Position numbers and translations under genes: made by a program | Part shown: in pieces, positions 1,466 through 14,064 of the stretch | Layout of the letters: each line of letters begins with the position of its first letter | Position numbering within the stretch: position 1 is the stretch's first letter | From: a virus | Lineage: Duplodnaviria; Heunggongvirae; Uroviricota; Caudoviricetes | Virus record (IMG/VR): IMGVR_UViG_2563366799_000001 | Length of the DNA stretch: 14,064 bases | Reading direction: 5' to 3' (one strand) | The notes under the pieces: generated by a model | Database searches by the model: none | Told to the model about the DNA's origin: nothing | The model's input: only the letters and a program-made list of their open reading frames with translations

Positions 1466-2992
1466 TCAAAAATGAACCTCACCATCAACCATATATTTGA
1501 GAGTACTTATCGCCTGCTGGGCGGATATTGTTTTCATTAAAGGATAGTGTTTAAAAACAATGCCATTCATAAAATAGATATCACAGGTTTTATTATCTGT
1601 ATTGATTATGATTTTTTCGAATGTTTTATAGGCAAGTGTACGACATAGCTCTCGCCCATTTTTACTGGTTAAGTCAATAGCATGAAAATCACCAAGTGAA
1701 CTCACCGCTTTACTCTTCAAAGTTTTTAATGATACCGAAGCCCTTCGTAATTCCTTATCTAATACTCTGATTTTTTCTGCTATAGCGGTAACTTCAGGCG
1801 CGACAGACAATGCAACGATTAAATTATTAATTTTCATCTGAAGCTCAATAATTTTTAACTCTAAAGTTTCATTAGCATCTTTCTTGTTTTCAACTGGTTG
1901 AATTTTGCCACAATTAAAAAGCAATTCATTAATGATATTATAATCAACCAAATCTCTTTTTATTGATGGCCTGTCACATCGATGTAATCTTCTCATCGGA
2001 CAAACATAATAGCCATGCAAACTTCCAGATACCGCATGAACAATCATGGTATTACCACAAGCCTCACACTTCATAACTGTTCGAAGTAGATTTATTAGCA
2101 TAGGATTCTTGCTACTATTGCTAATACCAAAAGGTGCCAACCGAATTTCCTGTACAGCGTAAAACAAATCATCTGATATGACTCTGGGATAATAGCCAGC
2201 GATTTCACTTATCCCTTTCCCTCTTGCACGATATGAAGGTACGCATATACCTATCAGAGCTTTATTCGCTAATAATTTTTCAATTACAGAAGGCCCCCAT
2301 GCACTTTCTTTTCCTGAGAAATTCTTTACAGCATGATCATTTAAATACTTGGCTATTGCATTCAATGAGCGCCTTTCCATCCTGAGTTTAAAAATTAGCT
2401 CAATAGTTTTCACCCTGTCGGGGTCTGGAACAAAGGCCGTTCTTTTGTCATCTAAGGAGAGCCATCTCGGACAAGACGCCGTCATAATCGTACCTGATTC
2501 CAGTGCATCCTGCCGTTTTTTCTTCCATGATAATTTAACCCGACTTGACTTTATCTCGCTTTCTTCATTTGCCCTTTGTGCTATAAGTATGGCTTTTATT
2601 AATGAATATGGCTCATTCAAAGAGTCAATATTATAGACTGTATTGTCGCAAAGAGTTATAACATCAATACCGTGATTCAAAATCAATTTCAGACGTTCAA
2701 TCGCTTCACCGACTTTTTCTCTTGAAAGTCTGTCCAGACTTTCAACTAACAATGTAGTTCCTGGCAATATATAACCATGCTCTATAGCATCTAAAAATTC
2801 CGAAAAAGCTCCTGATTGTGCATGCTTTCCTTTGAATGCACTTAATCCTAAATCTTCATATGTTATGGTATCAAGATAATAATCACTATTTACCTTTAAC
2901 CATTCAGCAATAAGTCTTCTCTGTCGGTTTAATGAGTCGCCAGACATCTGACCTGGTGATGAAAATCGCATATATGCTATGGCTTTTTTCAT
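1466..2992 (-). CDS. ybcK: large serine recombinase (resolvase-type catalytic domain, recombinase domain, zinc-ribbon), YbcK-like
   Basis: 508-aa ORF. N-terminal YMRFSSPGQ matches the serine-recombinase catalytic motif; C-terminal cysteine cluster CEACGNT ... YYVCP ... HRCD. AGGTG ribosome-binding site 5 nt upstream. Same length and same position next to emrE as DLP12 ybcK. Confidence 0.88.
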   Translation of the reverse strand: MKKAIAYMRFSSPGQMSGDSLNRQRRLIAEWLKVNSDYYLDTITYEDLGLSAFKGKHAQSGAFSEFLDAIEHGYILPGTTLLVESLDRLSREKVGEAIERLKLILNHGIDVITLCDNTVYNIDSLNEPYSLIKAILIAQRANEESEIKSSRVKLSWKKKRQDALESGTIMTASCPRWLSLDDKRTAFVPDPDRVKTIELIFKLRMERRSLNAIAKYLNDHAVKNFSGKESAWGPSVIEKLLANKALIGICVPSYRARGKGISEIAGYYPRVISDDLFYAVQEIRLAPFGISNSSKNPMLINLLRTVMKCEACGNTMIVHAVSGSLHGYYVCPMRRLHRCDRPSIKRDLVDYNIINELLFNCGKIQPVENKKDANETLELKIIELQMKINNLIVALSVAPEVTAIAEKIRVLDKELRRASVSLKTLKSKAVSSLGDFHAIDLTSKNGRELCRTLAYKTFEKIIINTDNKTCDIYFMNGIVFKHYPLMKTISAQQAISTLKYMVDGEVHF

Positions 2993-3236
2993 GGTGACAC
3001 CTGCTAACGTATGCTTTTATAAATCTTAGTGGTGAGATATAATTTTTGTTTAATTTTTATTTAAAAAGACAATTACGATCACATTCTCTTGAATATACAA
3101 CAATAATCGTATTGCAATTTGCTTACGCAATAATCTTGAAGGCACAAAAGAATACATAAAAACTAAAAACATTAACAAAAGCGGCCCATGTAAAGATATG
3201 AACCGCCATATTTCAGTCTTTTAAAAGAAATTATTT

Positions 3237-3569
3237 TTAATGTGGTGTGCTTCGTGACAATAAATTAATAACCAACACACCGGCACAAATCAACATCATG
3301 CCTATAACGGCTGGCAGGTCCAGCCGTTGGACGAAAAACCCCCATGACAGTAAGCTAATCAGGACAATACCGACTCCTGACCAGATAGCATAAGCAATCC
3401 CTGTAGGAATATAAGCCAGCGTCTGAGCTAATAACCAGAATGATGCACAGTAACAAATAATTGTACCAACAGATGGCCATAACCGTGTAAAACCTTCTGA
3501 AAACTTCATTAAGGTTGTACCAATGACCTCTGCAAGTATTGCACCACCAAGATAAATATAAGGATTCAT
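3237..3569 (-). CDS. emrE: small multidrug resistance efflux transporter EmrE
   Basis: Translation from MNPYIYLGGAILAEVIGTTLMKFSEGF ... LLSRSTPH is 110 aa and matches EmrE nearly residue for residue from recall. AGGAAAG ribosome-binding site before ATG at 3569. The track ORF (3237..3623) includes 18 upstream codons judged non-coding. Confidence 0.93.
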   Translation of the reverse strand: MNPYIYLGGAILAEVIGTTLMKFSEGFTRLWPSVGTIICYCASFWLLAQTLAYIPTGIAYAIWSGVGIVLISLLSWGFFVQRLDLPAVIGMMLICAGVLVINLLSRSTPH

Positions 3570-4014
3570 AGCATATTCTTTCCTGTTCAAACTGGAGAGA
3601 ATTGTACTACAGATTGAACTCAACTCACCGGTTTCATCATTGTGTATCCATTGATGTTCTTTTGTATACCCTCAATATCCGTTTCATCGCGGTACTCCGG
3701 CGACACTCCTTAAAAATCAGGTTCGGCTCACCTTTCCTGCCCGTTCTCCCCGGGTAGCAAACCGATAATACACCGTTCGCCAGTCCTTACTATCAATGAC
3801 CAAGATTCCTGCCCATATCATTTTAGCCGCAGCCTAATTTATGCTGGTTATTGTTACGTGTGAATTCAGTTAGCTGCATAAATTGTCACGGAAGTGATAC
3901 ATCGATATTATCGAGAAATTCACTCGAATTTATACGATTGAAACTGCACTTATATCTGTTTTAAATACTCCGAACACTCTTTACAACAACTGTGTGAAAA
4001 TGGAGATAATTAAA

Positions 4015-4743
4015 ATGAAAAAGGGTTTGGCTATTTCATTCATTGCCGCCGTGTGTGCATTTGCTGCAAATGCGAGTGCTGAGGAAAGTAAAAACGGGTT
4101 TTATCTAACCGGTAAAGCCGGTGCCTCTGTGGCGTCGTTATCAGACCAGCGTTTTCAGTATGATGAAGGCGATTGGTCAACTGGATTTAAGGGCAGCAAC
4201 AACCATGACACGGCGTTTAGTGGTGGTATCGCAGCGGGTTATGACTTTTACCCACAGTTCAGTATTCCTGTTCGTACGGAGCTTGAATTTTATGCCCGCG
4301 GAAAGGCTGATACAGAATACAATCTTTTTAAGGACGACTGGGTGCGAGCTGACATGAAGAATGAGGTGTCAGTCAACAGCCTGATGTTGAACGCGTACTA
4401 TGACTTCCGGAACGACAGCGCATTCACCCCTTGGGTGTCCGCAGGGATTGGTTATGCAAGAATTCATCAGAAATCAACGGGTGTCATCACCTTCGATAAT
4501 GGATACGGATACAGTGACCGCGCATCTGATTCCCGTTCAGATTCTTCTGATAACTTCGCATGGAGCCTTGGTGCTGGCGTCCGCTATGACGTAACTCCAG
4601 ATGTCAGTCTGGACATCAGTTATCGCTACCTGGATGCAGGTGATGCCAATGTGACTTATACCGATGATTGGGGCGATAAATATAAATCAGATGTTGATGT
4701 AAAAAGTCATGACATTATGCTTGGTGTAACCTATAACTTCTGA
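4015..4743 (+). CDS. outer-membrane beta-barrel protein with signal peptide
   Basis: Start at internal ATG 4015 (MKKGLAISFIAAVCAFAANASA-EE signal peptide with AxA cleavage motif) preceded by GGAG. Alternating aromatic/hydrophilic beta-strand pattern and C-terminal ...GVTYNF, the terminal-Phe signature of outer-membrane barrels. Confidence 0.8.
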   Translation: MKKGLAISFIAAVCAFAANASAEESKNGFYLTGKAGASVASLSDQRFQYDEGDWSTGFKGSNNHDTAFSGGIAAGYDFYPQFSIPVRTELEFYARGKADTEYNLFKDDWVRADMKNEVSVNSLMLNAYYDFRNDSAFTPWVSAGIGYARIHQKSTGVITFDNGYGYSDRASDSRSDSSDNFAWSLGAGVRYDVTPDVSLDISYRYLDAGDANVTYTDDWGDKYKSDVDVKSHDIMLGVTYNF

Positions 4744-5144: not shown

Positions 5145-5237
5145 TCACACTGTTACAGCTGATAGTGCAACAACCTCCAACGCACAGAAGCTCTTATGCG
5201 TCCCCAGGTAATCAATAATTGCCTCTTTGCCCGTCAT
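5145..5237 (-). pseudogene. ren: ren remnant (30 codons, premature stop)
   Basis: ATG overlaps the P stop codon (ATGA) as in lambda. Translation MTGKEAIIDYLGTHKSFCALEVVALSAVTV* matches the lambda Ren N-terminus (MTGKEAIIHYLGTHNSFCAPDVAAL...) then terminates. Confidence 0.55.
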
Positions 5238-5935
5238 ACACTTGCTCCTTTCAGCCCAAACTTCGCTTTGATTTCTGCGATCTTCGCCAGAGCCTGAACA
5301 CGATTAAGCGGTCTCCCGCCCATAACAGGAAGTTGTTTTACTGGTTCAGGTATCGCCTCACCACGGTTAATTCGCGCTGTCATACAGGCCAGTTCATCGG
5401 CAGCCTTGCGCCGTAATTCCGCATCAGTCAGCGCATTGGCCCGCATGTTCTGATACAGGTTGGTAACCAGCCAGTAGTGCGCGTTTGATTTCCACGGATA
5501 AGACTCTGCATCCGGATACAGGCCACGTTTCCGGCAATACTCGTAAACCATATCAACCAGCTCGCTGGCGTTTGGCAGCCCGGCGGTAACGGATGCTTCT
5601 TCCCGGCACCAGGCAACAAACTGCCCGGGTGATGGCAGGAATGGTCGATTCTGCCGACGGGCTACGCGCATTCCTGCGTTAACCTGTTCCATCGTGGTGA
5701 TCCCGTTTTCCCGGAAAGCCAGAACCCACTGGCGGCGGATTTCGTTCAGTTCGTTCTGGTCCCGGTTAGCCAGGCTCGCCGGGAAAGTTGCCAGTAACTG
5801 GCTGAACACACCATTGATGATCTGCGCTACCTGTTGTACCTGCGGCTTTTCGTCGTACTGTTCCGGCATGTTGTTGGCGATCCGGCGCATCTGCTCACGG
5901 TCAAAGTTAACCATCTGTGCGGCGATGTTTTTCAT
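5234..5935 (-). CDS. P: lambda-type replication protein P (DnaB helicase loader)
   Basis: 233-aa translation MKNIAAQMVNFDREQMRRIANNMPEQYDEKPQ ... KFGLKGASV matches lambda P almost exactly from recall. GGGGTGG ribosome-binding site; start overlaps the stop of the upstream O fragment. Confidence 0.95.
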   Translation of the reverse strand: MKNIAAQMVNFDREQMRRIANNMPEQYDEKPQVQQVAQIINGVFSQLLATFPASLANRDQNELNEIRRQWVLAFRENGITTMEQVNAGMRVARRQNRPFLPSPGQFVAWCREEASVTAGLPNASELVDMVYEYCRKRGLYPDAESYPWKSNAHYWLVTNLYQNMRANALTDAELRRKAADELACMTARINRGEAIPEPVKQLPVMGGRPLNRVQALAKIAEIKAKFGLKGASV

Positions 5936-6397
5936 AAATCCACCCCGTAAATCCAGTCAGTGTTTGTCAGGTCGAGTTTTGATTTTCCGGCTGTCACGCC
6001 AGCCTGTTGCTTGTTACGGTTGATTTCGAGTTGGGTCCACTTGTCGCGGAGTTTGGCCGGACTTAGCACGTTACCGGACCAGAAGTTGTCCTGGCATGCC
6101 CAGCGGAACAGCACGCACATGTCGCGGTGGTTACGGCCGTCACGTTCACGCATCAGACGGATATCGTTAGCCCACCCTGCAAAATTCGGTTTTCTGGCTG
6201 ATGGCGCGATGGTCTTCACCATGTCAAACATCCACTCTGCGGCGGTCAGGTCTTCTGCTGTCCCCCACTTGCTGCCGCTCTGAATCGCAGCATCCGCTTT
6301 CACCACAGGAAGGTCGTTTTCTGGCAGGTCAGAGGATTCGCCAGAATTCTCGGACGAATAAGGTTTTATATTGTCTTTTGTTAGTTTGTCTTTTGTG
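5932..6397 (-). pseudogene. O: replication protein O, C-terminal (P-interacting) part only; N-terminal origin-binding domain deleted
   Basis: Translation from ...[59 protein letters not shown] ... TDWIYGVDL matches the lambda O C-terminal half. The first ~35 codons of the 191-aa track ORF (5932..6507) are antisense to gam and are not O. Confidence 0.8.
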
Positions 6398-6400
6398 TTT
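6344..6400 (-). promoter_or_regulatory. remnant of ori-lambda AT-rich segment (iteron array absent)
   Basis: In O sense: ACACAAAAGACAAACTAACAAAAGACAATATAAAACCTTATTCGTCCGAGAATTCTGGCGAATCC, resembling the A/T-rich part of ori-lambda including the GAATTC site inside O. No TCCCTCAAA-type iterons upstream; the sequence switches to gam at about 6405..6415. Confidence 0.45.
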
Positions 6401-6414
6401 ACCTGATTCGGGTA

Positions 6415-6534
6415 AGTGCCTTTACCCGTGCATTTGATGACGATGTTGAGTTTCAGGAGCGCATGGCAGAACACATCCGGTACATGGTTGAAACCATTGC
6501 TCACCATCAGGTTGATATTGATTCAGAGGTATAA
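6415..6534 (+). pseudogene. gam: gam 3' fragment (last ~40 codons, no start)
   Basis: Plus-strand frame reads ...[39 protein letters not shown], matching the lambda Gam C-terminus. Ends 5 nt before the bet start, as in lambda. Confidence 0.75.
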
Positions 6535-6539
6535 AACGG

Positions 6540-7325
6540 ATGAGTACAGCACTCGCAACGCTGGCTGGGAAGCTGGCTGAACGTGTCGGCATGGATTCTG
6601 TCGACCCACAGGAACTGATCACCACTCTTCGCCAGACGGCATTTAAAGGTGATGCCAGCGATGCGCAGTTCATCGCATTGTTGATCGTCGCCAACCAGTA
6701 CGGCCTTAATCCGTGGACGAAAGAAATTTACGCCTTCCCTGACAAGCAGAACGGCATCGTTCCGGTGGTGGGCGTTGATGGCTGGTCCCGCATCATCAAT
6801 GAAAACCAGCAGTTTGATGGCATGGACTTTGAGCAGGACAATGAATCCTGCACATGCCGGATTTACCGCAAGGACCGTAATCATCCGATCTGCGTTACCG
6901 AGTGGATGGATGAATGCCGCCGCGAACCATTCAAAACCCGTGAAGGCAGAGAAATCACGGGGCCGTGGCAGTCGCATCCTAAACGGATGTTACGGCATAA
7001 AGCCATGATTCAGTGTGCCCGTCTCGCCTTCGGATTTGCGGGTATCTATGACAAGGATGAAGCCGAGCGCATTGTCGAAAATACCGCATACACTGCAGAA
7101 CGTCAGCCGGAACGCGACATCACTCCGGTTAACGATGAAACCATGCAGGAGATTAACACTCTGCTGATTGCCCTGGACAAAACATGGGATGACGACTTAT
7201 TGCCGCTCTGTTCCCAGATATTTCGCCGCGACATTCGCGCATCGTCGGAACTGACACAGGCCGAAGCAGTGAAAGCTCTTGGATTCCTGAAACAGAAAGC
7301 CTCTGAACAGAAGGTGGCTGCATGA
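6540..7325 (+). CDS. bet: Red beta single-strand annealing protein (Bet)
   Basis: 261-aa translation [38 protein letters not shown] ... EQKVAA matches lambda Bet from recall; stop overlaps the exo start. Confidence 0.96.
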
Positions 7326-8002
7326 CACCGGACATTATCCTGCAGCGTACCGGGATCGACGTGAGAGCTGTCGAACAGGGGGATGATGCGTGGCACAAAT
7401 TACGGCTCGGCGTCATCACCGCTTCAGAAGTTCACAACGTGATAGCAAAACCCCGCTCAGGAAAGAAATGGCCTGACATGAAAATGTCCTACTTCCACAC
7501 CCTGCTTGCCGAGGTTTGCACCGGTGTGGCTCCGGAAGTTAACGCTAAGGCGCTGGCCTGGGGAAAACAGTACGAGAACGACGCCAGAGCCCTCTTTGAG
7601 TTCACTTCCGGCGTGAATGTTACTGAATCCCCGATCATCTATCGCGACGAAAGTATGCGCACCGCCTGCTCTCCCGATGGTTTATGCAGTGACGGCAACG
7701 GCCTTGAACTGAAATGCCCGTTTACCTCCCGGGATTTCACGAAATTCCGGCTCGGTGGTTTCGAGGCAATAAAATCGGCTTACATGGCCCAGGTGCAGTA
7801 CAGCATGTGGGTGACTCGAAAAGATGCCTGGTACTTTGCCAACTATGACCCGCGCATGAAGCGTGAAGGCCTGCATTATGTCGTGATTGAGCGGAATGAA
7901 AAGTACATGGCGAGTTTTGACGAGATGGTGCCGGAGTTCATCGAAAAAATGGACGAGGCACTGGCTGAAATTGGTTTTGTATTTGGGGAGCAATGGCGAT
8001 GA
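7322..8002 (+). CDS. exo: lambda exonuclease (Red alpha, 5'-3' dsDNA exonuclease)
   Basis: 226-aa translation [47 protein letters not shown] ... FVFGEQWR matches lambda Exo from recall. Confidence 0.96.
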
Positions 8003-9280: not shown

Positions 9281-9602
9281 GGCCTGTCAGTTTCTCAAGA
9301 TATCCAGACCTACCGCTACCAACTGGATACGAACAGGCCGCCTACAGGCAACACGCAAAGACCCCACTAAACTAAAATCTCCTTACCTCACAACACGACA
9401 AGCCTGCATTGCGGCGCTTCAGTCTCCGCTGCATACTGTCCAGGTGAGCGCGGGTGATGGCATAACAGAGGAAAGAAAATGTCACTCTTCCGCAGAGGTG
9501 AAATATGGTACGCCAGTTTCACATTGCCGAACGGTAAAAGATTTAAACAGTCTCTTGGAACAAAGGACAAAAGGCAGGCGACAGAACTCCATGACAAGCT
9601 AA
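9252..9602 (+). CDS. xis: excisionase (P22-type Xis, 116 aa)
   Basis: Internal ATG 9252 ([32 protein letters not shown]..., helix-turn-helix) preceded by GAGGT. Sits immediately upstream of int and overlaps it by about 124 nt in another frame. Confidence 0.65.
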
Positions 9603-10642
9603 AGGCTGAAGCATGGCGGGTCAGCAAACTTGGTGAAATACCTGATATAACGTTCGAGGAAGCGTGTGTCAGGTGGCTTGAAGAGAAAGCACATAAAAAA
9701 TCACTGGACGATGACAAAAGCCGGATCGGATTCTGGCTTCAACATTTCGCAGGAATGCAACTAAGAGACATTACTGAATCAAAAATTTATTCAGCAATGC
9801 AGAAAATGACGAACCGGCGTAATGAGGAAAACTGGAAACTCAGGGCAGAAGCATGCAGAAAAAAAGGGAAACCTGTTCCAGAATACAAGCCAAAACCAGC
9901 GTCTGTTGCAACGAAGGCTACGCATCTTTCATTTATAAAAGCCCTACTAAGAGCCGCAGAGCGTGAATGGAAAATGCTGGATAAGGCACCAATTATTAAA
10001 GTGCCTCAACCAAAGAATAAACGGATCCGCTGGCTGGAGCCCCATGAAGCACAAAGGCTGATTGATGAATGTCCGGAGCCATTAAAGTCTGTTGTTGAAT
10101 TTGCACTGGCAACAGGCTTAAGACGCTCGAACATCATCAACCTTGAATGGCAACAAATAGATATGCAGCGCCGGGTGGCATGGATAAACCCGGAAGAGAG
10201 TAAATCAAACCGCGCAATCGGCGTTGCGCTGAATGATACTGCATGTCGCGTATTGAAAAAACAAATCGGGAATCATCACCGTTGGGTATTTGTGTACAAG
10301 GAAAGCTGTACCAAACCAGACGGAACGAAAGCGCCAACAGTAAGGAAGATGCGGTATGACGCAAACACAGCCTGGAAAGCGGCGCTGAGACGGGCTGGTA
10401 TTGATGATTTCAGATTTCACGACTTGAGACACACCTGGGCAAGTTGGCTGGTTCAAGCCGGAGTCCCGTTGTCAGTGTTACAGGAAATGGGAGGCTGGGA
10501 GTCTATCGAAATGGTTCGTCGATATGCTCACCTTGCACCTAATCACCTTACCGAACACGCACGGCAAATAGACTCGATCCTGAACCCATCGGTCCCAAAT
10601 TTGTCCCAGTCAAAAAATAAGGAAGGTACTAATGATGTGTAA
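9479..10642 (+). CDS. int: P22/DLP12-type tyrosine integrase
   Basis: 387-aa ORF. N-terminus [34 protein letters not shown]; catalytic-domain motifs [12 protein letters not shown] (HxxR) and VRRYAHL (Tyr). 3' end abuts a tRNA-Thr 3' fragment, the P22-family att arrangement. Confidence 0.93.
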
Positions 10643-10656
10643 CTTATTGATTTAAA

Positions 10657-10708
10657 TGGTGCCGATAATAGGAGTCGAACCTACGACCTTCGCATTACGA
10701 ATGCGAAG
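10657..10708 (-). other. 3' fragment of tRNA-Thr(CGU) (thrW-type att core); 5' half of the tRNA absent
   Basis: Reverse complement reads ...TCGCATTCGTAATGCGAAGGTCGTAGGTTCGACTCCTATTATCGGCACCA: anticodon stem-loop with CGU anticodon, variable loop, T arm, acceptor 3' strand and CCA. Sequence to the right does not continue as the D arm or 5' acceptor strand. Confidence 0.8.
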
Positions 10709-10790
10709 TTTTTATATTTTAACTGCTTGAACAACCATCAGAAATCACAAATTTATCATTTTAAATCATAATATTAAAACAAAAAACCTG

Positions 10791-10888: not shown

Positions 10889-12208
10889 ATGGCGCTTTCA
10901 AGACAAAAACTAACCTTCGAACGAATTCGAAGATTTACTTTACCTGAAGGGAAAAACCAAGTTTTCCTTTGGGATACGGACGTAACAAGCTTGGCATGTC
11001 GAGCAACTCGTGGAGCAAAAGCCTTTGTATTCCAAAGCCTGTATGCGGGAAAAACCCTTCGCATGACCATTGGCAACATTAACGATTGGAGGATTGATGA
11101 TGCGAGGGCCGAAGCCAGGCGACTGCAAACATTAATCGATACTGGGATAGATCCGCGTATAGCTAAGGCGGAAAAAATTGCTGAAGCGGAATCACAGCAG
11201 GCTGAATCTCGTAAAACGAAGGCAACCTTTTCAAGCGCTTGGGAAGATTATCTTGATGAATTGAGAACCGGAATCAGCGCAAAAACTAAACGCCCCTACT
11301 CTGCACGCTACATTGCCGATCACGTTAACTTGTCCAGTCGTGGAGGCGAAAGTAAAAAAAGAGGCCGGGGCCCAACCTCACCTGGGCCACTGGCTAGCCT
11401 GCTCGACCGACCATTATCAGAACTAACACCAGAGAACATTGCCGAATGGCTAAGTACAGAGAGACAAAATCGGCCTACCGTCACTGCTCATGCCTACCGT
11501 CTGTTGCGTGCATTCATCAAATGGGCTAATTACCAGAAAAAATATCAGGGAATAATCGATGGCGATCTTGCACAAGATCATAACGTGAGAAAAATGGTTC
11601 CAATATCAGCGAGCAAAGCGGGAGATTGCTTACAAAAAGAACAGCTCAAAAGCTGGTTCAGTGCCGTGCGTAGCCTCAATAATCCCATTGCATCAGCCTA
11701 TCTCCAAGTGCTTTTGCTCACCGGTGCACGGCGTGAAGAAATTTCCTCACTTCGCTGGTCTGACATAGATTTCAAATGGTCAAGCATGAGAATTAAAGAC
11801 AAGATCGAAGGCGAGCGAATTATCCCCCTCACTCCCTATGTTTCTGACTTGTTACGCTCACTGATGGAGATCCCCAATCGTGGTACAAACGAGGAGAATT
11901 GGGTTTTCAGAAGTAACAGCAAAAGTGGCAAAATTATTGAACCGCGTTCAGCACATAATAGAGCATTAACTCGCGCGGAGTTACCACATATCAGCTTGCA
12001 CGGATTGCGCCGTAGTTTTGGGACCCTCGCTGAATGGGTCGAAGTACCAACAGGTATTGTTGCGCAGATTATGGGCCATAAGCCTAGCGCTCTTGCTGAA
12101 AAGCACTATCGCCGCCGTCCATTAGATTTGCTAAGAAAATGGCATGAAAAAGTTGAATTATGGATCTTAGAAGAAGCAAAAATAAAAAACAACGTTGATA
12201 AGCGTTGA
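10889..12208 (+). CDS. P4-type tyrosine integrase
   Basis: 439-aa ORF. C-terminal catalytic motifs LHGLRRSFGTLAEW and KHYRRR (Tyr); long N-terminal arm-binding-type domain. Unrelated in sequence to the upstream P22-type Int. Confidence 0.88.
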   Translation: MALSRQKLTFERIRRFTLPEGKNQVFLWDTDVTSLACRATRGAKAFVFQSLYAGKTLRMTIGNINDWRIDDARAEARRLQTLIDTGIDPRIAKAEKIAEAESQQAESRKTKATFSSAWEDYLDELRTGISAKTKRPYSARYIADHVNLSSRGGESKKRGRGPTSPGPLASLLDRPLSELTPENIAEWLSTERQNRPTVTAHAYRLLRAFIKWANYQKKYQGIIDGDLAQDHNVRKMVPISASKAGDCLQKEQLKSWFSAVRSLNNPIASAYLQVLLLTGARREEISSLRWSDIDFKWSSMRIKDKIEGERIIPLTPYVSDLLRSLMEIPNRGTNEENWVFRSNSKSGKIIEPRSAHNRALTRAELPHISLHGLRRSFGTLAEWVEVPTGIVAQIMGHKPSALAEKHYRRRPLDLLRKWHEKVELWILEEAKIKNNVDKR

Positions 12209-12225: not shown

Positions 12226-12247
12226 AACTTACATAAAATCACATGTG

Positions 12248-12275
12248 TTGACAGAAATTTTTTTTCAGTTATCTT
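12248..12275 (+). promoter_or_regulatory. putative sigma70 promoter for the downstream operon
   Basis: Consensus -35 TTGACA at 12248..12253, 16-bp T-rich spacer, -10-like TATCTT at 12270..12275. Not verified. Confidence 0.3.
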
Positions 12276-12322
12276 TTATTACTGCTAACTACATTCACTC
12301 ACTAAGCAGGAGATTAACTACA

Positions 12323-12748
12323 GTGACTAACCCAATAACTGTATCAAGAGAAGACCGAAGTGCGGAAATCAGAGCGAGATGGGGTTTACATCCGACTAAA
12401 AACAAAAGTTCTAATTTTTGGGAAACAACAATTCAGCGTTTTAATAATAGTAGTACTGACCGAATACTACCTCTTTGGCACCGTGTTTCAAAACTTTTAG
12501 TTGCTATTAGGAATGTAGTCAATACTATAACATGCCCTTTTCCACCAAAGGGGAATACTTCCCGCTCACGCCGAAGTTCAACAACGTCATCAAAAAACTC
12601 ATCATCATCTTCATCGGATGGTAGTAGTAGCGACCCCGATCCCGATAGAGACCCCATATTCACCCCTTTTCATTTCATTCTTTCATCTCTGTTAAAAACA
12701 ATGATCGTCTTATTTGCCCACATATCAAATGTTGGGGTGATGAAATGA
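12323..12748 (+). CDS. hypothetical protein with Ser/Asp-rich low-complexity segment (GTG start); coding strand uncertain
   Basis: GTG at 12323 preceded by AGGAG 10 nt upstream; stop overlaps the next gene's ATG (ATGA coupling). Contains SRSRRSSTTSSKNSSSSSSDGSSSDPDPDRD. An antisense ORF (12433..12663) with an acidic stretch is an alternative. Confidence 0.3.
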   Translation: MTNPITVSREDRSAEIRARWGLHPTKNKSSNFWETTIQRFNNSSTDRILPLWHRVSKLLVAIRNVVNTITCPFPPKGNTSRSRRSSTTSSKNSSSSSSDGSSSDPDPDRDPIFTPFHFILSSLLKTMIVLFAHISNVGVMK

Positions 12749-12966
12749 GCGATATCAAACATCAAAAACCCTCTCAGTCACAACTAATTTCTACCCGCGA
12801 GTTAGCTAATATTATTGGCTATGAAGTACAAACTATTCGAGCTTGGCTTTGCAAAGACAAACTGCCTAATGGTTTACCGCGACCGAAGAAAATTAAAAAC
12901 CGACACTATTGGTCACGTAAAGACATTGATAGATACCTATTAACCTTCTCAGTATATAGTAACTAA
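12745..12966 (+). CDS. AlpA-like helix-turn-helix phage regulatory / excisionase-family protein
   Basis: 73 aa. ISTRELANIIGYEVQTIRAWL then LPRPKKIKNRHYWSRKDIDRYL, the same pattern as AlpA (HTH followed by FPKK...W...EIDEWL). Position just downstream of a P4-type integrase is typical. Confidence 0.6.
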   Translation: MSDIKHQKPSQSQLISTRELANIIGYEVQTIRAWLCKDKLPNGLPRPKKIKNRHYWSRKDIDRYLLTFSVYSN

Positions 12967-12977
12967 TAGAGGCCTCC

Positions 12978-13003
12978 CCCGGCTATTCTAAAGAATAGCC
13001 GGG
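12978..13003 (+). terminator. perfect 11-bp-stem hairpin (possible terminator or protein-binding palindrome)
   Basis: CCCGGCTATTC-TAAA-GAATAGCCGGG, 12 nt after the AlpA-like stop; followed by TTAGTTAAT (weak U tract). Confidence 0.4.
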
Positions 13004-13088
13004 TTAGTTAATACAAACCTTCCATTAACAATGGGGGGAGATTAATACTATTTATCACATCTCACATTAACAAAATTCAAGGTCACAT

Positions 13089-13853
13089 ATGAAAAAACGC
13101 ATCACTTTCAGCGTAAACAATAGTTCTACTATTGATGCAATTGACGACTATAGCAATGCAAAAGGATACTCCAGGTCAGAGGTGATATCATTTTTATTAA
13201 ACGCCACAGTCCCAGCATTGAATAAAATAACATCGCAATATCATATAGCTCAAACTTTGGAGTCAACATTAGGCTGTATTTTTGAAGAGAAGGCCCCGTC
13301 AATAGCACGGGGGGAGCCAAAATTAACTTACGAAGAGTTTTTTCATTCCGTCTGGAACACTCACATTCGACACCGGAACGAGGTTATCGACCAGAATTTT
13401 TATGCACACAAAATATCTCATGATAAGATGGGGAAGAGTGAAAAAAAATTAATTCATGAAAAGCTCACATACATTATAAAAAGCTTCAATGTAAAAAAAG
13501 CAATTTTTATTTACACAGATCGGCGCGTGAACCACAAACATCTAATTGCAGGAGGGTTGTCAAATATCATACTGATAAAGGAAACAGTTTACGATGGTTG
13601 TTTTTTTGATTTGAGCAGCATTGTGATTATGCCAATCTTTGAACTTATTACATTTGGAATTGAAGAGGTATTGAAAAGAAATAAAATCCACCATAAACAA
13701 TCATGCTATTGCTGGATACCAATTTATTACACAAATGATCTAGCGGTAATGGTCCCGGTGATTGCCGAAGGCGATACACCTCAAAAGGCGATGAAAGGAG
13801 GAGATGCCATCATTATTAACCCCTTTAACGGTGAAGTAAACCATACTTTCTGA
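13089..13853 (+). CDS. hypothetical protein, N-terminal ribbon-helix-helix-like motif plus ~200-aa domain of unknown function
   Basis: 254-aa ORF with AAGG ribosome-binding site. N-terminus MKKRITFSVNNSSTIDAIDDYSNAKGYSRSEVISFLL fits the CopG/Arc-type RHH pattern (beta-strand then helices). Remainder unrecognised. Markedly AT-rich relative to the prophage genes. Confidence 0.65.
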   Translation: MKKRITFSVNNSSTIDAIDDYSNAKGYSRSEVISFLLNATVPALNKITSQYHIAQTLESTLGCIFEEKAPSIARGEPKLTYEEFFHSVWNTHIRHRNEVIDQNFYAHKISHDKMGKSEKKLIHEKLTYIIKSFNVKKAIFIYTDRRVNHKHLIAGGLSNIILIKETVYDGCFFDLSSIVIMPIFELITFGIEEVLKRNKIHHKQSCYCWIPIYYTNDLAVMVPVIAEGDTPQKAMKGGDAIIINPFNGEVNHTF

Positions 13854-13935: not shown

Positions 13936-13972
13936 ATGCCTACTAACAAAGCAAAATCAAAGAAAATTCTAG
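13936..13972 (+). pseudogene. 5' stub of a gene (12 codons) cut off by IS5
   Basis: GAGGG ribosome-binding site, then ATG at 13936 encoding MPTNKAKSKKIL; the IS5 end starts at 13973 and the frame stops shortly inside it. Confidence 0.35.
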
Positions 13973-14064
13973 GGAAGGTGCGAATAAGCGGGGAAATTCT
14001 TCTCGGCTGACTCAGTCATTTCATTTCTTCATGTTTGAGCCGATTTTTTCTCCCGTAAATGCCT
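13973..14064 (+). mobile_element. IS5 terminal segment (partial copy, body extends beyond window end)
   Basis: GGAAGGTGCGAATAAGCGGGGAAATTCTTCTCGGCTGACTCAGTCATTTCATTTCTTCATG..., the IS5 terminus; exact inverted copy of bases 1..92. Preceded by CTAG (YTAR target). Confidence 0.92.

Follow-up and report, generated by a model that had tools for sequence, protein, structure and literature searches.

A gene of 254 codons at positions 13089-13853 of IMG/VR virus record IMGVR_UViG_2563366799_000001 (Caudoviricetes) was analyzed in the 14,064-nucleotide stretch of DNA that contains it, here called the window. By its sequence the gene is a divergent new member of the catalogued, uncharacterized YagM family. 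CP4-6-type islands, which integrate at a tRNA-Thr (thrW) site, have it as a fixed part of their backbone, and their cargo starts beyond the gene for YagK. That it is a YagM-family backbone gene with a ribbon-helix-helix (RHH) DNA-binding domain is very probable.

The protein was aligned with YagM of Escherichia coli K-12 (b0279), encoded in cryptic prophage CP4-6. BLASTP gave 32% identity over 248 residues (E 2e-44), and hhalign gave a probability of 100% (E 2.7e-48), a significant similarity over the full length. A precomputed PF27701 label (named 'UCP007319') is carried by an identical protein and by all 31 relatives. Word-indexed searches for relatives returned 22 and 31 clusters at 90% identity, and every cluster bore the PF27701 label. 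An exhaustive hidden Markov model (HMM) search of 1.84 billion representatives recovered 51 proteins, nearly all full-length members or fragments, and no bridge to another family or architecture. The family is narrow, comprising Enterobacterales and one Aeromonas, and no homologue was found in the phage genomes searched. Of 5426 complete E. coli genomes, 12 have the window-type allele and 334 have that of K-12. Though rare in E. coli, the window-type allele is common in other Enterobacteriaceae. A Salmonella match labelled as a plasmid (CP101363.1) was rejected as an excised island; it is a linear 11.7-kb chromosomal fragment.

Published information on the family is sparse. A 2024 y-ome survey lists yagK, yagL, yagM, ykgV and yagN as uncharacterized genes of CP4-6 (PMC11551758). 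ASKA over-expression clones of yagM were enriched under H2O2 and HOCl (PMC8228696), and the yagM Keio mutant lost rifampicin-induced persistence (PMC5845583). The literature found on YagM, YagK and YfjJ consists of such screen results and of Rho-terminator studies, and nothing was found on PF27701.

Residues 1-40 form a predicted CopG-type RHH domain, which is followed by a long helix and then by the C-terminal domain. The N-terminus shows the beta-alpha-alpha pattern of the RHH superfamily. The family profile aligned with CopG of plasmid pMV158 at 93% probability over 37 columns. CopG (1b01/2cpg) was also the top match in a profile search of all PDB sequences, with an E value of only 0.14, and is thus, of the proteins with solved structures, the one closest in sequence to residues 1-40. 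The N-terminal peptide alone gave no meaningful match against the PDB. Residues 1-11 are coil in the monomer AlphaFold2 model, and by structure comparison the RHH-plus-helix part resembles complete antitoxins of the ParD/CopG type.

The C-terminal domain, residues 72-254, was modelled separately from a 29-sequence alignment. It is a mixed alpha/beta domain modelled with a predicted local distance difference test score (pLDDT) of 86.4 and a pTM of 0.83. Conserved motifs in it are KKAIxIYTDR, GGxSN, FFD, IPIYHTN and IIINP, and invariant or near-invariant polar residues are H107, E118, K136, T143, D144, R145, S158, D174, Y213, T215, N216 and N244. No match to the domain was found in Pfam-A (a copy without the PF27701 model itself), NCBIfam, PHROGs, PADLOC or the PDB, and a Foldseek search of the model against BFVD gave nothing at E ≤ 0.001. 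Structural matches were at noise level and covered fewer than 80 of the 183 residues. Structure comparison showed no likeness to RelE/ParE, MazF, PIN, GNAT or other toxin folds and no nuclease-like fold. The sequence lacks an HUH or DxD motif pattern. A relationship to the neighboring YagK protein was considered and rejected (hhalign probability 0.1%). On these searches, the domain is found only in the YagM family.

A first-pass annotation, made without database searches, had described the protein as an RHH-like N-terminus fused to an unrecognizable domain of about 200 residues. Both parts of that description stand, given the CopG profile alignment and the absence of any library match for the C-terminal domain. 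The same annotation called the gene an orphan, which it is not: YagM of K-12 is a full-length homologue, public assemblies have the identical protein indexed in 2196 blocks and homologues occur in many Enterobacterales. A match to a housekeeping or structural family, which that annotation had named as refuting it, was not found.

The reading frame lies exactly where the first-pass annotation had placed it, and it is a real, intact gene under purifying selection. Pairwise ratios of nonsynonymous to synonymous substitution (dN/dS) against six homologues of 88-96% amino-acid identity were 0.10-0.22. The homologues were drawn from E. coli, Kluyvera, Scandinavium, Serratia and Buttiauxella. The single outlier is the closest pair, at 0.32, for which dS is only 0.026. 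Ratios are alike in the N-terminal 70 codons and in the remainder of the gene. The AT-richness noted earlier is evident relative to the lambdoid prophage genes at 5234-8002 (36.7% GC in the YagM-like gene against 51-55%), but it is not specific to this gene. The two genes just upstream are equally AT-rich (AlpA-like, 36.9%; YagN-like, 38.5%), and low GC is therefore a property of this part of the island rather than of the YagM-like gene alone.

The backbone was examined by tblastn, with six island proteins as queries against 29 loci of 13 genera (Escherichia, Kluyvera, Scandinavium, Serratia, Buttiauxella, Erwinia, Winslowiella, Pantoea, Enterobacter, Proteus, Providencia, Pectobacterium and Salmonella). 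At the corresponding end of K-12 CP4-6 the gene order is intF-yagN-ykgV-yagM-yagL-yagK. An AlpA-like gene lies upstream of the YagM-like gene in every locus reaching that far, except one from Proteus (L029). Downstream, all loci with sufficient flank have a YagK homologue, and in divergent lineages a YagL-like gene stands between it and the YagM-like gene. In the window YagK is out of view, cut off by an IS5 element and the window end. Near-identical islands without this insertion sequence (IS) (L001, L014 and L018) have a YagK-family gene, annotated as 'inovirus Gp2 family', 460 bp after the YagM-like gene. The gene thus has the neighborhood typical of the family: integrase, YagN, AlpA/YkgV-like, YagM, YagL and YagK.

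Genes downstream of YagK are variable. They include a sucrose phosphotransferase system operon, a type I restriction-modification system, an OLD-family gene with UvrD (Gabija-like) and a ClpK/small heat shock protein (sHSP) heat-resistance cluster. The YagM-like gene does not show the variable presence, or the location in a variable region, that mark cargo; it occupies the same backbone position in all related islands. Since its position is the same everywhere and variability is found only beyond YagK, it belongs to the invariant backbone. The first-pass annotation had put the gene in the cargo position of a P4-type integrase/AlpA module. The integrase and AlpA context is borne out by the IntF-type integrase and the YkgV/AlpA-like gene upstream, but the cargo position is not. 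The comparison of presence and absence across related islands that it called for found no occurrence of the gene in a core-genome context; within the islands the gene is an invariant element. The same backbone occurs with the heat-resistance cluster, the sucrose operon or type I restriction-modification, and it is therefore a general cargo carrier. The core of P4-like satellites (psu, delta, sid, alpha primase/helicase and epsilon) was not found in the window island or its relatives. A Salmonella locus (L008) does have true P4-like elements with Psu/Ogr_Delta, adjacent to the island but distinct from it.

In L013 and L016 (14282-20765), an identical YagM-like protein is encoded in a backbone carrying a ClpK/sHSP20/YfdX heat-resistance cluster. 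Islands with this cluster include that of heat-resistant E. coli AW1.7 (H3/H4).

The genes downstream of the YagM-like gene point to candidate partners. The YagK-family protein (L014, 11227-11847, beyond the window end) contains the HUH motif KCHFHLGLFF and the YxxK motif DYLAK, a pair known from relaxases and rolling-circle Rep proteins. It matched the REP_ORF2-G2P replication-protein model only below threshold, and a PDB search with this 'inovirus Gp2 family'/YagK_YfjJ_C protein found no sequence relative. YagK-like proteins may be an HUH endonuclease of the islands, as yet uncharacterized. Homology links the YagL-like proteins to small serine recombinases carrying an HTH_7 domain. In the island copies the catalytic motifs Arg-x-Ser and DRLGR are mostly absent; in lineages other than that of the window the proteins are 184-232 amino acids long with degenerate catalytic motifs.

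A YagM homologue (34% identity, E 3e-46) with a resolvase directly downstream was found at 1905-3429 of a 4136-bp circular Providencia plasmid, NZ_CP114799.1 (L030). This resolvase retains the Ser and LDRLGRD motifs and is apparently catalytically intact. The plasmid, of Col3M type, otherwise has one lipoprotein-like open reading frame (ORF). It carries no integrase, AlpA or YagK, and no Rep protein or Rfam RNA was detected in it. About 0.5 kb of it (~194-704) is ~92% identical in many 2-6-kb Proteus and Providencia plasmids and may be the plasmid origin. The YagM-resolvase pair stands alone on this plasmid, so both genes can travel together; this suggests a mobile unit of two genes, one for YagM and one for a serine recombinase.

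The reading we favor is that the YagM-like protein is a sequence-specific DNA-binding regulator of, or an architectural accessory factor for, the YagL/YagK recombination- or replication-like module of the island; we put its chances at close to even. A YagM-family protein would dimerize through its RHH domain and bind specific island DNA. The bound protein would then act as a transcriptional regulator, as an architectural accessory factor for the module, or as both. The C-terminal domain would supply oligomerization or higher-order assembly, partner binding or signal sensing. Two parallels are known. CopG controls the HUH initiator RepB of pMV158 in the copG-repB operon, and relaxases have RHH accessory proteins. 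An RHH gene lies upstream of an HUH-motif gene both in copG-repB and in the YagM-like/YagK arrangement. However, CopG has 45 amino acids and no C-terminal domain, the islands have a yagL gene or its remnant in between, and YagK is at most a putative replication initiator.

The sequence upstream of the gene is consistent with restrained expression. A perfect hairpin separates it from the AlpA-like gene (Table 1). In close relatives of the window a G:C pair of the hairpin is replaced by A:T, a compensatory change, and strong perfect hairpins with stems of 9-16 bp but unrelated sequences occupy the same place in four of five divergent lineages. Examples are at ~6863-6887 in K-12 (L011), 9931-9966 in Salmonella (L008) and ~9943-9976 in Pectobacterium (L007); the Providencia lineage has no hairpin between its AlpA-like and yagM-like genes. 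None of the hairpins has a clear U-tract. Candidate roles of the hairpin are an attenuator, an RNA 3' end and a palindrome bound by a protein. No promoter-like site was found directly upstream of the YagM-like gene, and the best match of the region lies ahead of the probable start of the YagN-like gene. A yagN-alpA-yagM transcription unit with internal attenuation is therefore suggested. In K-12, the region preceding yagM is reported to rank with the strongest Rho-dependent terminators in vivo (PMC9160355, PMC12133298). Expression of the YagM-like gene would probably be held low in the same way, through the AT-rich surroundings and through transcription termination in the leader ahead of the gene.

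Several observations weigh against the role proposed for the protein. All Pfam and NCBIfam RHH-type matches fell under their gathering thresholds, including DUF6364 (18.1 bits; cut-off, 27.3), aCcr1_fam (17.4 bits; cut-off, 60) and HicB_lk_antitox. When all 20 family members were scanned against Pfam, RHH-type matches recurred but were all below threshold. A candidate operator, the direct repeat CATTAACAA in two copies (13014-13031 and 13056-13073), was rejected, the distal copy being unconserved in relatives of ~90% identity. In the window lineage YagL is reduced to a 58-amino-acid helix-turn-helix (HTH) protein and its gene is interrupted here by IS5, which casts doubt on YagL as an obligatory partner of YagM. 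YagK-family genes presumably also occur without YagM, as with yfjJ next to yfjI in CP4-57. The polar residues that are invariant in the C-terminal domain would suit an enzyme or a ligand-binding site as well.

Other explanations were weighed. The C-terminal domain might be a new fold that acts as a sensor of phage infection or of a small molecule, or that has a new catalytic activity, and that would, through the RHH domain, induce the island to excise, replicate or transfer; we regard this as unlikely. Another idea is that the protein is a DNA-tethered enzyme or replication-type protein whose novel catalytic domain, for example nuclease or primase-like, works at the island origin. The noise-level structural matches, the lack of an HUH or DxD pattern and the lack of profile similarity to YagK leave that version with the slightest chance of all the readings considered. 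It is somewhat easier, though still rather unlikely, to see YagM as a recombination accessory, a DNA-binding partner of the small serine recombinase that would organize a res-like site or set recombination direction rather than act on transcription. In K-12 and in divergent island lineages, homologues of YagM and YagL are encoded side by side on the same strand, and the resolvase of the Providencia plasmid pair has kept its motifs. However, the island YagL proteins have lost theirs, and YagM remains under purifying selection in the window lineage, where YagL is only an HTH remnant. The plasmid pair is a single example, and no res-like repeats were identified.

The suggestion of the first-pass annotation, that the gene is cargo and that its product is a single-protein sensor/effector against phages or an autoregulated toxin, found no support and is quite improbable. 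Related islands do carry defense systems, the C-terminal domain is unrecognized and rich in invariant polar residues, the RHH-plus-helix part is like whole ParD/CopG-type antitoxins and yagM is transcriptionally silenced in K-12, all of which would suit such a gene. Against this, the gene belongs to the invariant backbone, with the variable cargo downstream of it, has no occurrence in phages and no small partner gene, matches no PADLOC-DB v2 family at E ≤ 1 and has no toxin- or nuclease-like fold. An ASKA selection with induced over-expression yielded clones of K-12 yagM, and yagM is therefore not grossly toxic (PMC8228696). A fused addiction module that stabilizes the island is very improbable, whether as an antitoxin-like RHH domain joined to a toxin-like C-terminal domain or as an antitoxin for a separate toxin. 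What adjoins the gene downstream is the YagL HTH gene and YagK rather than a small toxin gene, the C-terminal domain is unlike toxin folds, and the family is narrow with one constant architecture.

Comparison with known systems places the protein closest to YagM of K-12, with which it shares the RHH plus C-terminal architecture and the position between YkgV and YagL/YagK. The K-12 protein differs in a 35-residue N-terminal extension, and identity is only 32%. Type II RHH antitoxins (ParD, TacA, FitA and MazE-type; PDB 5ceg, 6xrw, 7ak7 and 2bsq) lack the extra conserved 180-residue globular domain found here. Type II toxin-antitoxin systems are two-gene cassettes, whereas this gene has no cognate toxin gene and lies in an island backbone operon; no adjacent, co-transcribed small toxin gene of a known family is present. 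NikR-type regulators are a further point of comparison, having an RHH domain fused to a ferredoxin-like ligand-binding and oligomerization domain. No sequence similarity or significant structural similarity to NikR was detected, and ligand binding by the YagM-like protein is hypothetical. At the level of the island, the Pseudomonas tmRNA islands I23, I44 and I55 (PMC12595487) and E. coli CP4-57 have, as here, a core of tyrosine integrase, AlpA and a Gp2-like protein (YagK/YfjJ) with variable, often defense-related cargo. They differ in integration site and gene order, and no YagM-family gene has been reported in them. The Pseudomonas islands with defense cargo move by jumbo-phage transduction, and the functions of their core are likewise unexplained (PMC12595487).

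Table 1. Coordinates of the YagM-like gene and of other features in the window.
Feature	Position	Strand	Remarks
YagM-like coding sequence	13089..13853	+	ATG start, 254 codons plus stop; YagM-family (PF27701/UCP007319) protein
RHH DNA-binding domain (predicted)	13089..13208	+	Residues 1-40, MKKRITFSV...GYSRSEVISFLLN
Family-specific C-terminal alpha/beta domain	13302..13850	+	Residues 72-254
Perfect 12-bp palindrome / RNA hairpin	12978..13003	+	Between AlpA-like gene and YagM-like gene; intergenic RNA fold z = -5.7
Best sigma-70-like promoter match of the region	12248..12275	+	TTGACA-16-TATCTT; 10 of 12 positions, consensus match only; candidate yagN-alpA-yagM promoter
IntF-type (P4-family) tyrosine integrase	10889..12208	+	439 amino acids; Pfam Arm-DNA-bind_3 and Phage_integrase; 89% identity to K-12 IntF
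YagN-like ORF	12245..12748	+	30% identity (E 2e-11) to K-12 YagN, aligned from residue 27
YkgV/AlpA-like HTH_17 gene	12745..12966	+	73 amino acids; HTH_17, 28 bits; 66% identity to K-12 YkgV
yagL remnant	13937..13972	+	First 12 codons of the 58-amino-acid HTH mini-gene; cut by IS
IS5-type insertion sequence end	13973..14064		GGAAGGTGCGAATAAG...; inserted at CTAG
tRNA-like att remnant	10660..10732	-	51-nt 3' half of tRNA-Thr (anticodon CGU); Rfam tRNA, 36.3 bits; no ARAGORN call

Upstream of the YagM-like gene, the true start of the YagN-like ORF is likely the GTG at 12323, which has an AGGAG Shine-Dalgarno sequence ahead of it; the GTG annotated as its start overlaps the promoter-like site with the best match. 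A low-complexity stretch of the encoded protein, serine-rich and acidic (SRRSSTTSSKNSSSSSSDGSSSDPDPDRDP), recurs in K-12 YagN, and the stop of the ORF is overlapped by the YkgV/AlpA-like gene. Downstream, the intact 58-amino-acid ORF of L014 shares 58% identity with the HTH at the C-terminus of K-12 YagL. The stretch at 13973-14064 that interrupts this ORF in the window occurs in 1737 of the 5426 E. coli genomes, at up to 42 places per genome. It is annotated as an IS5 family transposase in H9, and we take its inverted repeat to be that of IS5.

The tRNA-Thr half separates a lambdoid integrase gene (9479-10642) from that of the IntF-type integrase, and both are on the same strand. The two integrase genes flank the tRNA remnant, an arrangement that indicates two mobile elements in tandem at one thrW-type attachment site. 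A tandem two-integrase arrangement is also present in E. coli ECONIH4 and CAVP776, and P4-like satellites abut the island integrase in Salmonella (L008) and Pectobacterium (L007). The low-GC left part of the window, 1466-4743, encodes a 508-amino-acid large serine recombinase (Resolvase, Recombinase and Zn_ribbon_recom domains), an SMR-family (EmrE-like) efflux protein and a 249-amino-acid outer-membrane beta-barrel protein. It adjoins lambdoid replication and recombination genes (lambda-P-like, RecT and YqaJ exonuclease), and its layout presumably recalls the emrE-ybcK region of prophage DLP12.

Islands of the CP4-6 and CP4-57 types are common carriers of defense systems, stress-tolerance loci and metabolic operons in Enterobacterales. 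The gene described here is reclassified from a possible new defense gene to a core gene of such islands. What is new is a divergent family member and, on present evidence, not a new kind of system. YagM gains a testable domain assignment, a predicted RHH DNA binder joined to a confidently modelled domain without detectable relatives, and YagL (resolvase-like) and YagK (HUH-motif) are pointed to as its likely functional partners. Should the C-terminal fold prove to be a sensor or a catalyst, the protein would be a missing control element of CP4-6-type islands. Any experimental result on the gene would transfer directly to a y-gene of E. coli K-12.

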